Below are positions 26,545 through 28,905 of a stretch of DNA of 64,000 nucleotides, piece by piece. Positions within the stretch are counted from its first letter, which is position 1, and the number at the start of each line of letters is the position of its first letter. Made by a program: the position numbers and the translations under genes. The DNA is from Alphaproteobacteria bacterium (GTDB lineage: Bacteria > Pseudomonadota > Alphaproteobacteria > CALKHQ01). A model generated the notes under the pieces. The model was not told where the DNA came from and ran no database searches. It was given only the letters and a program-made list of their open reading frames with translations. The stretch covers positions 96,001 to 160,000 of the forward strand of contig CBDDFZ010000001.1 of NCBI GenBank assembly GCA_965227515.1. The letters are read 5' to 3'.

Positions 26545-27000
26545 ATCCGTATCGTCATCGCCGCGGCGGGGCGCCTGAAGGGCCACCCGCTGCAACCGGC
26601 GTTCGATGCCTATGCCACCCGGCTGACCTGGACGCTCGCTGTGCAGGAAGTGGATGTGCGCGGCAATCTGTCGGCGGGCGAGCGCGCCGCCAAGGAAGCG
26701 GCCGGCCTGCAGAAGGCAGTCGCACCGTGCCAGACCGTGGTGGCGCTGGACAGCCGGGGTGAGCGCGCCACCAGCACCGCGATCGCCAAGCGCCTCGCGG
26801 GCTGGGCCGAGGAGGCCCGCCTGCCGGTGGGCTTCCTGATCGGCGGCGCCGACGGACTGGCGCCCGGCCTTCTCGACACCGCGCATTGGCGGCTCAGCTT
26901 CGGCCGCCAGACCTGGCCGCACCTGCTGGCCCGGGTGATGCTGATCGAACAGCTCTACCGCGCCCAGCAGATCCTCGCCGGCCACCCGTATCATCATTGA
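26545..27000 (+). CDS. rlmH: 23S rRNA pseudouridine(1915) N3-methyltransferase (no canonical start at the expected N terminus)
   Basis: (I)RIVIAAAGRLK N terminus, FLIGGADGL, TWPHLLARVMLIEQLYRAQQILAGHPYH. Confidence 0.9.
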   Translation: MRIVIAAAGRLKGHPLQPAFDAYATRLTWTLAVQEVDVRGNLSAGERAAKEAAGLQKAVAPCQTVVALDSRGERATSTAIAKRLAGWAEEARLPVGFLIGGADGLAPGLLDTAHWRLSFGRQTWPHLLARVMLIEQLYRAQQILAGHPYHH

Positions 27001-27013
27001 TGCCAATACAGTG

Positions 27014-27128
27014 CGTCATGGTCGGGCTTATCCCGACCATCCACGTCTTATTGGCCGCTTCGCGGCCAGCTCGTGGATGCCTCCTCGGATCAAGTCCGAG
27101 GACAGGCTTCACACGTGCGGGCATGACG
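27014..27128. repeat. CGTC-tagged palindromic repeat, family A, copy 2
   Basis: CGTCATGGTCGGGCTTATCCCGACCATCCACGTCTTATTGGCCGC...CGTGGATGC...GGGCATGACG. Confidence 0.8.
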
Positions 27129-27295
27129 ACGGAGATTGGGCAGCAGCCAGAAACGCTAACAACGACAACCTCATCAGGTACGTAGATGGGCTAACGGCCC
27201 TTGTTTGGTGGCGTGCATGAGTGGTCGTCCCTCAAGATGTCGGTGTCATACACGGAGTCGGGTTTGCCGCTCCAAGACATCGAGGAGAGACGACC

Positions 27296-28339
27296 ATGAA
27301 CTACTATGCCGGGATTGACGTTTCTTTGGAATGGTCATCGGTATGCGTTGTTGACGGCGCGGGCGGGATTGTCTGCGAGGCTCGTATTGCGAGCACGCCG
27401 GCGGGTTTGTTGTTGTGGTTTGGGTCTTTGGGGATTTCGGTTGAGCGGATTGGTCTTGAGGCGGGGCCGTTGTCGCAATGGCTTGTGCGGGAGTGCGCGC
27501 AGGGCGGTCTTTCGGTTGAGTTGCTGGAGACGCGTCATGTTGCGCGGGCCCTTTCGACGATGCCGGTGAAGTCGGACCGCTCGGACGCACGCGGGATTGC
27601 TCAGCTGATGCGTGTGGGCTGGTTTCGGCCGGTTCACTGCAAGTCTTTGGCGGCCCAGGAGATGCGGGCCCTTTTGAAGGGTCGCGACCAGCTCCGCGCG
27701 AAGCTGCACGATCTTGAGATGCACCTTCGTGGTCAGCTGCGGAACTTCGGGCTGAAGGTAGGGCACACCACCAGGCGCAGCTTTTCGACACGTATTTCGG
27801 AGCTTGTGGCGGGGCATCCGGTACTGGAGGCGGTGGCGGGGGCGCTGCTGTCGGCACGCGATGGCCTGTTGCTATCGTTCACGGCGCTGGACCGGCAGGT
27901 CCGGGCGGCGGCGCAGGCCGACGATCGCGCTCGCCTGCTGATGACGGTGCCGGGCGTGGGGAGCATTGTCGGACTGACCTACTTGTCGGGAGTGGACGAC
28001 CCCGGGCGGTTTGCCTCGTCGCGCCTGGTGGGTGCGCACTTCGGCCTGACGCCGACCAAGCGCCAGTCGGGCGAGAGCGAGGTGATGGGGCGGATATCGA
28101 AGGTAGGGGACGCCGATGTGCGCTCGGCCCTCTATGAGGCGGCACACGTGGTTCTGACCCGGCCGATCGAGGGCGGCTGGCTGAAGAGCTGGGCGATGAA
28201 GCTGGCCAGGCGTGCGGGCATGAGGAAGGCGAAGGTCGCGCTGGCGCGCCGGCTCGCCGTCATCATGCACCGGATGTGGGTTGACGGCACACCGTTCAAC
28301 CATGCCGGACCGGTGCGCCCGGCGATGGCGACAGCATGA
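27296..28339 (+). CDS. IS110-family DEDD recombinase/transposase
   Basis: YAGIDVS (D), GLEAG (E), KSDRSDA (D,D) RuvC-like tetrad; TVPGVG, GL.P...QSG (conserved Ser), G.ISK.GD, KA.VALARRLA; GAGGAG RBS; ORF uninterrupted. Confidence 0.95.
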   Translation: MNYYAGIDVSLEWSSVCVVDGAGGIVCEARIASTPAGLLLWFGSLGISVERIGLEAGPLSQWLVRECAQGGLSVELLETRHVARALSTMPVKSDRSDARGIAQLMRVGWFRPVHCKSLAAQEMRALLKGRDQLRAKLHDLEMHLRGQLRNFGLKVGHTTRRSFSTRISELVAGHPVLEAVAGALLSARDGLLLSFTALDRQVRAAAQADDRARLLMTVPGVGSIVGLTYLSGVDDPGRFASSRLVGAHFGLTPTKRQSGESEVMGRISKVGDADVRSALYEAAHVVLTRPIEGGWLKSWAMKLARRAGMRKAKVALARRLAVIMHRMWVDGTPFNHAGPVRPAMATA

Positions 28340-28419
28340 TGGCCGCGGCATAAGGAGAACCGACACACGAGCTTCGACGGGCACCGACACCGGCCCGTCG
28401 AGCGCCGTCCCGCGCCGGG

Positions 28420-28560
28420 ACGATGGATCAGGTCAGGCCGCCATCCGGGATGTCGCCTCGCATGAGAGCACGCTTCCGTAGATTGGACCGACCGATCCTC
28501 GCATATCCATCTTGGCGGCGGCCCTGCGCCGACCCCGTACAGAAGCATGACCCAGGCGCC
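28420..28560 (+). ncRNA. Predicted bridge/seek RNA in the IS right end (boundaries approximate)
   Basis: Segments CCATCCGGG (28441-9), CGTAG (28477-81), CCATCTT (28507-13), TACAGAAG (28538-45) match target and donor junction sequences; GGATCAGGTC/GACCGATCC and GGCG/CGCC stems. Confidence 0.8.
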
Positions 28561-28605
28561 GGGACGACGAAAAAGGGATTGACCAACAATGGCCCGTTAC
28601 AGAAG

Positions 28606-28693
28606 CCCGGATGGAGCGCAACGTAATCCGGGGACGACAAGACTGCGTCGTTACGAATTGCCCCGGATTTCACGTCGTATCATCCGGGCTACG
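28606..28693. repeat. Inverted GTAG-REP dimer (REPIN-like); left REP split by the IS
   Basis: (CGTAG)CCCGGATGGAGCGCAACGTAATCCGGGG at 28606-28633 and CCCCGGATTTCACGTCGTATCATCCGGGCTACG at 28661-28693 (reverse complement begins CGTAGCCCGGATGA). Confidence 0.88.
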
Positions 28694-28730
28694 TGACCGA
28701 GCCCAGCGGCAGAAGTCATCGACCCGTTGC

Positions 28731-28854
28731 CGTCATTGCGAGGAGCGCCGCCCATCTCTTGGAATGGGGGGCGCGACGCGGCAATCCAGAGCAACCTATG
28801 CGACGTCACGTCAATCGCCTGGATCGCGTCGTCGTTTCACTCCTCGCGATGACG
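28731..28854. repeat. CGTC-tagged palindromic repeat, family B, copy 2
   Basis: CGTCATTGCGAGGAGC...GCGCGACGCGGCAATCCAGAGCAACC...CAATCGCCTGGATCGC...CTCGCGATGACG. Confidence 0.85.
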
Positions 28855-28905
28855 CCACACGTAGTGGGTGTGTCAGAGAATAGTGCCGGTGGTATGAGCC
28901 GGCGC

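Follow-up and report, generated by a model that had tools for sequence, protein, structure and literature searches.

We analysed a 64,000-nt stretch of an alphaproteobacterial genome (assembly GCA_965227515.1, contig CBDDFZ010000001.1, positions 96,001 to 160,000 of the forward strand; hereafter the window), which carries on its plus strand an insertion sequence (IS) of the IS1111 group at 27184–28605. The element consists of a left end, a transposase gene (tnp) and a non-coding right end, and lies in a palindromic repeat that resembles repetitive extragenic palindromic (REP) sequences. An earlier note, made from the letters of the window, had read the right end as encoding an RNA with guides for the target of the element and for its own joined ends. 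The comparisons reported here make it highly likely that the right end specifies a functional IS1111-type bridge RNA (seekRNA) with four guides as assigned below. The features that define the element are the following, in coordinates of the window.

27184–27185, plus strand: left core copy AG (CT on the minus strand); a single AG is present at the uninterrupted site
27186–27295, plus strand: left end, non-coding, 110 nt, beginning ATGGGC (left donor half on the minus strand)
27192–27209, plus strand: left arm of the subterminal inverted repeat, TAACGGCCCTTGTTTGGT
27296–28339, plus strand: predicted IS110-family DEDD transposase, 347 aa, with a GLTPTKRQSG motif; assigned from Pfam, NCBIfam and an IS621 alignment
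28582–28599, plus strand: right arm of the subterminal inverted repeat
28598–28605, plus strand: right terminus TACAGA (28598–28603) and right core copy AG (28604–28605)
28606–28637, plus strand: REP-like repeat bearing the target (CCCGGATGGAGCG...AATCCGGGG)

A site-specific element in REP-like repeats

The copy in the window comprises the left AG, a body (27186–28603) and the right AG. The host genome (two contigs, 5.52 Mb) contains 20 full copies, 89.8–100% identical, and one internally deleted copy. In gene orientation, every left junction reads NGT-AG/ATGGGCTAACGG..., that is, NGT-AG/ATGGGC... (20/20), and every right junction reads ...CCCGTTACAGA/AG-CCYGGRTG, that is, ...TACAGA/AG-CCYGGRTG (20/20), where the stroke marks the element boundary. 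All 20 copies occupy one position of the REP-like palindromic repeat, NGT-AG/CCYGGRTG; the target is the outer edge of the repeat. An AG stands at both junctions of all 20 copies, and the 114 uninterrupted NGTAG-CCYGGRTGN sites in the genome each have a single AG, which identifies AG as a shared core, as expected of site-specific insertion. The element is therefore 1420 bp long with one core dinucleotide counted in. The 134 natural sites (20 occupied, 114 empty) fall into four variants, with CCTGG in 45 of the 134; the uninterrupted ones read CCCGGGTG (60 sites), CCTGGGTG (33), CCCGGATG (18) and CCTGGATG (3). On the minus strand, the target is CCATCCGGG-CT-ACG, and the joined ends expected at the circle junction, deduced from the two element ends, read GCCCAT-CT-TCTGTA. 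The earlier note had given the same two sequences; the junctions of the 20 copies and the 114 uninterrupted sites agree with the first, and the second follows from the ends. The transposase gene is open in all 20 full copies, among which there are two sets of three identical ones, indicating that the element moved recently.

An empty near-cognate target, CATCCGGG-CT-ACG, is present on the plus strand at 28681–28693 of the window, with T in place of the preceding C. It lies inside the inverted partner of the element-bearing REP, starting 76 nt downstream of the right core dinucleotide.

The deleted copy (G000:C1:998352-999179; L021/L022) keeps approximately 714 bp at the left and 120 bp at the right of the element, such that the target-binding loop is gone while the donor-loop part and the right end are retained. 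It is the sole additional right-end piece in the genome, where we found no second RNA and no stand-alone RNA copies.

Judged by its sequence, the element is a member of the IS1111 group of the IS110 family. The non-coding region downstream of tnp is longer than that upstream (264 nt versus 110 nt), as is characteristic of the group, and the ends have the imperfect subterminal inverted repeats of IS1111 elements, whose arms (27192–27209 and 28582–28599) have TAACGG..CC.TTGTT.GGT in common with one indel. The transposase, with 347 aa and GLTPTKRQSG, fits the range of 330–350 aa and the GL-P----S(t)G motif given for the group (PMC11187229; here and below, comparisons with cited papers refer to portions of those papers). 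The subterminal repeat differs between relatives with the change present on both arms (TAACGGGCC vs TAATCGGCC). In the right-end tail of one relative, L066, the subterminal repeat and terminus are duplicated in tandem (…GGCCCGTTACAAAA GGCCCGTTACAGA).

The transposase matches the Pfam domains DEDD_Tnp_IS110 (PF01548, E 1.6e-12) and Transposase_20 (PF02371, E 2.3e-20), and it scores 239 bits against a cut-off of 140 with NCBIfam NF033542, 'IS110 family RNA-guided transposase'. Residues D8, E55, D94, D97 and S258 align with the catalytic residues of IS621 (phmmer alignment to 8wt6), as they do with the ISCro4 transposase. Since the N-terminal stretch of the 8wt6 alignment scores only 0.7 bits, the DEDD assignment relies on motif identity and the Pfam match. 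The closest transposase found among 5.8 billion clustered proteins is 72% identical, and thousands of proteins, mostly metagenomic, are 66–70% identical. The metagenomic relatives number about 8000. The transposase query had no match in three other genomes of the host's family (and order), four genomes being covered with its own.

A covarying RNA fold downstream of the transposase gene

A transposase search of species-representative genomes yielded 29 related loci with 43–69% identity, 27 of them in records titled Alphaproteobacteria and two acidobacterial (L036 and L058), and more copies were taken from 23 of those genomes. The downstream regions of the relatives have a common scaffold. The RNAalifold consensus of 17 distant relatives, which belong to another clade, has 48 pairs arranged in a long closing stem P1, a stem P2, an inner hairpin P3, a 2-bp closure and a hairpin P4, and leaves all four guide stretches unpaired. 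We trained a covariance model, R1, on those 17 relatives with the window element left out. In the 64-kb window, R1 found one match only, on the plus strand at 28402–28577, at full length and with 64.8 bits (E ~2e-15). The parts of the predicted RNA are as follows.

28402–28577, plus strand: predicted bridge/seek RNA, full-length R1 match
28407–28419, plus strand: P1 5′ arm, pairing with 28552–28565; helix 1, 11/14 pairs changed on both sides
28425–28434, plus strand: P2 5′ arm GGATCAGGTC, the target-loop stem, pairing with 28490–28498; helix 2, 7/10 pairs changed on both sides
28451–28472, plus strand: P3, hairpin between the target guides; helix 4, 12/12 pairs changed on both sides
28490–28498, plus strand: P2 3′ arm GACCGATCC
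28500–28501, plus strand: 2-bp closure of the donor loop (CG), pairing with UG at 28548–28549; helix 5, changed on both sides in 6 sequences
28514–28533, plus strand: P4, donor-loop hairpin (GGCGGCGG...CGCCGAC); helix 6, 6/8 pairs changed on both sides
28552–28565, plus strand: P1 3′ arm

In the MAFFT alignments A1, A2 and A3, the element's closing stem and left donor guide were out of register with those of the relatives. Pair counts were therefore taken from the model-based alignment A5, and A1 was used for one RNAalifold run. In 21 sequences outside the R1 training set, standard pairs occupied 90.0% of cells, compared with 35.5–42.9% when the partners were slid. Pairs changed on both sides numbered 38 of 48, and none of 500 shuffles reached any of the five measures. 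The earlier note had placed the first two guides in a GGATCAGGTC/GACCGATCC stem and the other two around a GGCG/CGCC hairpin, and both stems were recovered with compensatory changes. The covariance model of homologous right ends that the note had envisaged has helices that covary strongly, and the guides within it track insertion sites, as described below.

The G-U cells (95 of 842) outnumber the A-C cells (19), which indicates that the tnp-sense strand is the strand that folds. This count also bears on the possibility that the guide is not an RNA but the single-stranded DNA of an element end, which, in the manner of IS200/IS605 elements, would fold and pair with the target. Sequence alone does not separate RNA from DNA, and a DNA fold could be strand-specific too. 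However, so many G-U pairs speak against DNA, as do the position of the guide module, 60–200 nt inside the element and away from the cleaved tip, and the type of the transposase, which is DEDD/serine and not HUH. An RNA mechanism has moreover been shown for IS621, ISEc11, ISPa11 and ISKpn4 (PMC11187229, PMC11208160). We consider a DNA guide extremely unlikely.

Four loop words match the target and the element ends

The bridge RNA as we read it would present four guides in its loops.

28441–28449, plus strand: left target guide CCAUCCGGG (DNA CCATCCGGG), complementary to the plus-strand right flank CCCGGATGG (28606–28614)
28477–28481, plus strand: right target guide CGUAG, the same as the plus-strand left flank CGT followed by the core AG
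28507–28513, plus strand: left donor guide CCAUCUU, matching the reverse complement of the left end and core
28538–28545, plus strand: right donor guide UACAGAAG (DNA TACAGAAG), the same as the right terminus TACAGA followed by the core AG

The earlier note had located these words at 28441, 28477, 28507 and 28538 of the plus strand, and all four are present there; the right donor word TACAGAAG recurs at the element end (28598–28605). Their expectation by chance was estimated from 20000 dinucleotide-preserving shuffles of 28340–28596. The 9-mer CCATCCGGG occurred in 136 shuffles, CCATCTT in 159, TACAGAAG in 18 and CGTAG in 1476 (7%). Because it is so frequent by chance, the 5-mer CGTAG is weak alone, in keeping with the caution of the earlier note that individual matches are short, and the case from a single sequence requires comparative support.

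Frequencies such as those of the 9-mer and CGTAG suit an explanation in which the words are relics or chance captures of the REP or of the ends, the sites being picked by protein–DNA contacts and the subterminal repeats. A target match of at least 9 nt on either strand arose in 173 of 5000 shuffles, the element lies inside REP repeats, and REP fragments are plentiful nearby. Nevertheless, none of the 20000 shuffles contained all four words at once. Furthermore, a one-base guide difference tracks a one-base target difference within the genome, and relatives with unrelated targets have words that match their own flanks at the same places of the fold (see the next two sections). On the strength of this covariation we rejected a captured REP fragment as the origin of the 9-mer, and we regard the relic explanation as a whole as very unlikely.

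A one-base difference in the guide tracks the target within the genome

The 20 copies form two groups by one base of the left target guide: 13 have CCATCCGGG and 7 have CCATCCAGG, G28447 being replaced by A. The A-guide copies (CCAUCCAGG) reside in CCTGG targets in seven of seven cases, whereas the G-guide copies (CCAUCCGGG) reside in CCCGG in 11 of 13 and in CCTGG in 2 of 13 (Fisher p = 4.6e-4 for the two guide groups); a G-T wobble is possible in these two. The donor ends are the same in both guide subfamilies. Among the natural sites, G-guide copies fill 9 of the 27 perfectly matching CCCGGATG sites, compared with 4 of the 100 sites of the other three variants (p = 1e-4). Free sharing of RNA among copies predicts ~55% of A-guide insertions in CCCGG, against an observed 0/7 (P ~0.004 under a simple model). 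Two guide alleles in one genome may amount to a natural reprogramming experiment.

Of the seven A-guide copies, five are closely related, one looks chimeric and the last has at least 102 differences. The chimera-like copy (G000:C1:926328-927758) has 29 differences from the window copy and 31–44 from the five close A-guide copies, and combines an A-guide right end with a CCTGG target.

Guides follow the flanking DNA across relatives

In all, 118 elements were extracted, of which 78 are distinct in guides and flanks. For the left target guide (26 classes), a mean of 7.12 of the 9 core-adjacent positions match the element's own right flank; with permuted flanks, the mean was 4.12 ± 0.26 and the maximum 5.29, such that 0/20000 permutations reached the observed value. 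For the right target guide (20 classes), 3.72 of 6 positions match, versus 2.08 ± 0.25 in permutations (0/20000). The guide TTTGTCCGCT, for example, accompanies the flank AG-CGGACAAA, and the guide CATGTCCGCT accompanies AG-CGGACATG; likewise, CAACCCGCC is found with AG-GGCGGGTTG and CAATCCGCC with AG-GGCGGATT. On the other side of the core, the right target guides CCCAATAG, CCCGATAG and ACTTAG have left flanks identical to each guide. Thus, the protein families, the covarying fold and the covariation of guides in this genome and in relatives together support the reading of the locus as an IS1111-type RNA-guided recombinase, which the earlier note had advanced.

Two more distant relatives, with transposases 43–45% identical, have a further target-loop-like module located downstream of their first RNA (L047:2447-2790 and L138:2381-2500). 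In L047, the left guide of the second module, TTCCGTCCCT, fits the actual right flank AG-GGACGGAA, whereas the guide of the first module does not. These elements may have a two-target-loop architecture, as their sequences suggest.

Donor guides, core and candidate handshake positions

The donor guides follow the element ends. The right donor guide equals the right terminus plus the core in every clade seen (ACAGA-AG, AGAGA-AG, AGCGA-AG in L043 and ACCGA-AG in L149), and the left donor guide tracks the left end (ATGGG/CCCAU, ATGCC/GGCAU in L049, ATGCT/AGCAU in L149 and ATGGT/CACCAU in L140). The core varies too: L140 has AC (GT) and not AG (CT), and its right target, right donor and left target (GU) guides have all changed; L075 has AC in both 3′ guides and at the left junction.

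In IS621, each 3′ guide is followed by two bases that, once strands have been exchanged, pair with the other DNA (PMC11208158). The corresponding positions of the window element are the following.

28482–28483, plus strand: AU, candidate target-loop handshake guide, equal to the first two left-end bases AT (rule from PMC11208158)
28546–28547, plus strand: CA, candidate donor-loop handshake guide; weak, as only its first base fits the target (the flank begins CC)

In the elements compared, the right target guide is followed by the same two nucleotides with which the left end begins: AT in the majority, and CU in L047 and L054, whose left ends begin CT. From this concordance, 28482–28483 are candidates for behaving like the IS621 handshake guide.

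Observations that weigh against a functional bridge RNA

Several observations count against the reading of the right end as a bridge RNA with these four guides. As to the guides themselves, the right target guide is only 3 + 2 nt long, its word arising by chance in 7% of shuffles, and the left target guide is mismatched at the first core base (AU for CU). The latter caveat had been raised in the earlier note, as AT rather than CT across the core; it is real and lineage-specific, the core-spanning bases of this guide being AT in L073, AA in L034 and CT or C in other clades. The left ends ATGGCG, ATTGGC and CTGGGG (the last in L047/L054) are only partly mirrored in the left donor guide, and of the two donor-loop handshake positions just one fits here; among relatives read by eye, the first position fits in about half.

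The comparative statistics have biases of their own. The guide–flank permutation tests leave shared ancestry in, and the pair counts were taken on an alignment fitted to R1, which favours the structure. Some copies in relatives lie off their own guides (L033/L068, L103, L040/L087 and L088). The guide of L033/L068 is unlike its site, and a sister copy in the same genome, L062, has a guide that fits that site; guidance by the RNA of another copy is a possible explanation of such misfits.

With regard to the RNA, the free-energy fold of the whole right end is unremarkable versus shuffles (z = -1.58), and Rfam matched no family in 26900–28900 at E up to 1. The guides pair in part with one another in the ensemble of the naked RNA, where the mean unpaired probabilities are 0.33 for the left target, 0.46 for the right target, 0.57 for the left donor and 0.72 for the right donor guide, and opening them costs 8.6 kcal/mol. 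The earlier note had held that its reading would suffer if the segments fell in paired stems; this concern is allayed by the consensus, which leaves them unpaired, and stands in part for the naked RNA. Finally, a scan of 27100–28750 for sigma-70-like promoters returned 0 sites, and none of the 11 sequencing runs listed is an RNA run containing the stretch.

Expression and a candidate junction promoter

Since no sigma-70-like promoter precedes it, the RNA is probably the 3′ part of the transposase transcript. The features relevant to its production are the following.

28374–28401, plus strand: 9-bp hairpin between the stop codon and the RNA match (TCGACGGGC / GCCCGTCGA), with similar hairpins in closer relatives
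28579–28584, plus strand: conserved hexamer TTGACC, which resembles a -35 element and stands 19 nt away from the right terminus; it may be one half of a circle-junction promoter

The hairpin at 28374–28401 could act as a signal for processing or belong to the RNA as a 5′ stem-loop. The 27100–28750 scan gave three terminator-like matches, all within the inverted-repeat arms; they were not taken as terminators.

Junction promoters whose -35 element comes from the right end have been described for the IS110 family (PMC12288879). Of 37 unique right-end tails, 30 have TTGAC at a distance of 19 nt from the right terminus and 4 have it at 20 nt. Circularisation would place TTGACC 17 nt upstream of a hexamer in which the core is flanked by the element's two final and two initial bases. 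By analogy, the RNA is possibly transcribed from a junction promoter formed on the circle.

The place of the RNA raises the alternative that the fold is a 3′-untranslated or regulatory element of the tnp mRNA, concerned with its stability, translation, processing or termination, and that the complementarity to the ends reflects antisense regulation. The RNA does follow the gene directly and, no separate promoter having been found for it, is probably within the tnp transcript, and regulatory small RNAs are known in the IS110 family, namely Asr9 and Ssr9 of ISPpu9 (PMC12288879). This alternative, however, leaves unexplained why loop words follow flanking host DNA, which is outside the transcript, and why the two target words, as in IS621, are directed at opposite strands with an overlap at the core (PMC11208160). 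We consider it very unlikely in place of the guide function, although regulatory and guide roles are not exclusive.

An unrelated repeat beside the element

Just left of the element, window positions 27100–27133 hold a short repeat with at least five other genomic matches of 91–93% identity. It belongs to a family distinct from the target REP.

Discussion

Our analysis leads us to propose the following mode of action. The 264-nt right end would encode a bridge (seek) RNA of ~175 nt in the sense of the transposase gene, in which the closing stem P1 would enclose a target-binding internal loop and a donor-binding loop. P2 and P3 would frame the 9-nt left (28441–28449) and 5-nt right (28477–28481) guides of the target loop, while the 2-bp closure and P4 would frame the left (28507–28513) and right (28538–28545) guides of the donor loop. 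In each pair, the 5′ guide is predicted to bind one DNA strand to the left of the CT core, and the 3′ guide the other strand, across the core and rightward, as in IS621. The transposase, predicted to combine a DEDD RuvC-like domain with a serine-bearing C-terminal domain, would when loaded with this RNA bring the circularised element (GCCCAT-CT-TCTGTA) to the REP-borne CCATCCGGG-CT-ACG, and strands would be exchanged at the core. The word matches, the fold and the guide covariation are observed; from them we infer transcription, protein binding and strand-exchange chemistry.

The class to which the element belongs has been described, as the earlier note had recognized, and the published examples include right-end RNAs of IS1111 elements. 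Siddiquee et al. (2024) reported that the long downstream non-coding region of IS1111 elements yields a seekRNA that co-purifies with the transposase, and in which the match to the top strand lies 5′ of that to the bottom strand (PMC11187229). Durrant et al. (2024) defined the four guides for IS621 and, for 93.0% of the IS1111 elements of ISfinder, predicted a bridge RNA in the right end, the donor-binding bases of many IS1111 orthologues often being in a multi-branch loop (PMC11208160). The present element is accordingly a further member of a published class and leaves knowledge of the mechanism unchanged. It may have been named already in ISfinder or in published supplements.

The element resembles the seekRNA-bearing elements ISEc11, ISPa11, ISKpn4 and ISPst6 (PMC11187229) in its downstream non-coding region and subterminal inverted repeats, as well as in the size (347 aa, within 330–350) and GL-P----SG motif of the transposase. 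As in their RNAs, two short, overlapping segments address both target strands, the complement of the tnp-sense (top) strand being 5′ of that of the bottom strand. It differs in its target, a REP-like repeat of the present genome. The published target matches are in RNAs of 82–96 nt; here, the donor words and a handshake-like dinucleotide were traced as well, by comparison alone.

Likeness to the IS621 bridge RNA (PMC11208160, PMC11208158) is seen in the order of the loops, target before donor, in the CT core and in the REP target. In both, the longer 5′ guide (8–9 nt) pairs with the bottom strand and the shorter 3′ guide (4–7 nt, core included) with the top, the right target guide is followed on its 3′ side by two nucleotides that fit the donor and not the target, and the DEDD and serine residues are conserved. 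In contrast to the left-end RNA of IS621, the present RNA lies in the right end, downstream of the gene. The gene-defined top strand here gives the core as AG, unlike in IS621, so that the guides address mirror-image flanks. While IS621 has a simple internal loop, the present donor guides lie in a multi-branch junction that the long stem and a 2-bp helix close. The two transposases have low similarity, confined to the C-terminal domain (E about 3e-11).

ISPpu9 and ISPpu10 of Pseudomonas putida (PMC12288879) are IS110-family members that, like the present element, have inserted into REP sequences and show AG without exception at either junction. Junction promoters, as well as circle junctions, are described for them, and the junction promoter here is a candidate drawn from sequence. 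Unlike the present element, they are of the IS110 group and have their RNA on the upstream side of the gene, and separate copies resembling Ssr9 of ISPpu9 were not seen in the present genome.

What the element adds is modest and, as read from the genome, comprises a natural guide/target pair differing in one base, a bias in occupancy toward perfectly matching sites, and a hint that each copy uses its own RNA. One could tentatively go further and suppose that a copy takes its guidance chiefly from its own RNA, that a promoter formed only at the circle junction couples the guide to the donor, and that the handshake extends the IS621 rule to the IS1111 group; we offer this as a speculative proposal that is rather less likely to hold than to fail. 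If true, a circle-only promoter would account for the divergence of guide variants inside a single cell and for their specialisation on REP variants.

The element provides a natural IS1111-type bridge RNA that is fully readable, in that four guides, the core and one handshake position are assignable from its sequence. Its 134 natural sites in four variants allow specificity and wobble tolerance to be read, and the comparative set adds value through relatives whose core is AC and others that have two target-loop modules. With the nearest transposase found being 72% identical, the element is a candidate further ortholog for recombinase engineering.

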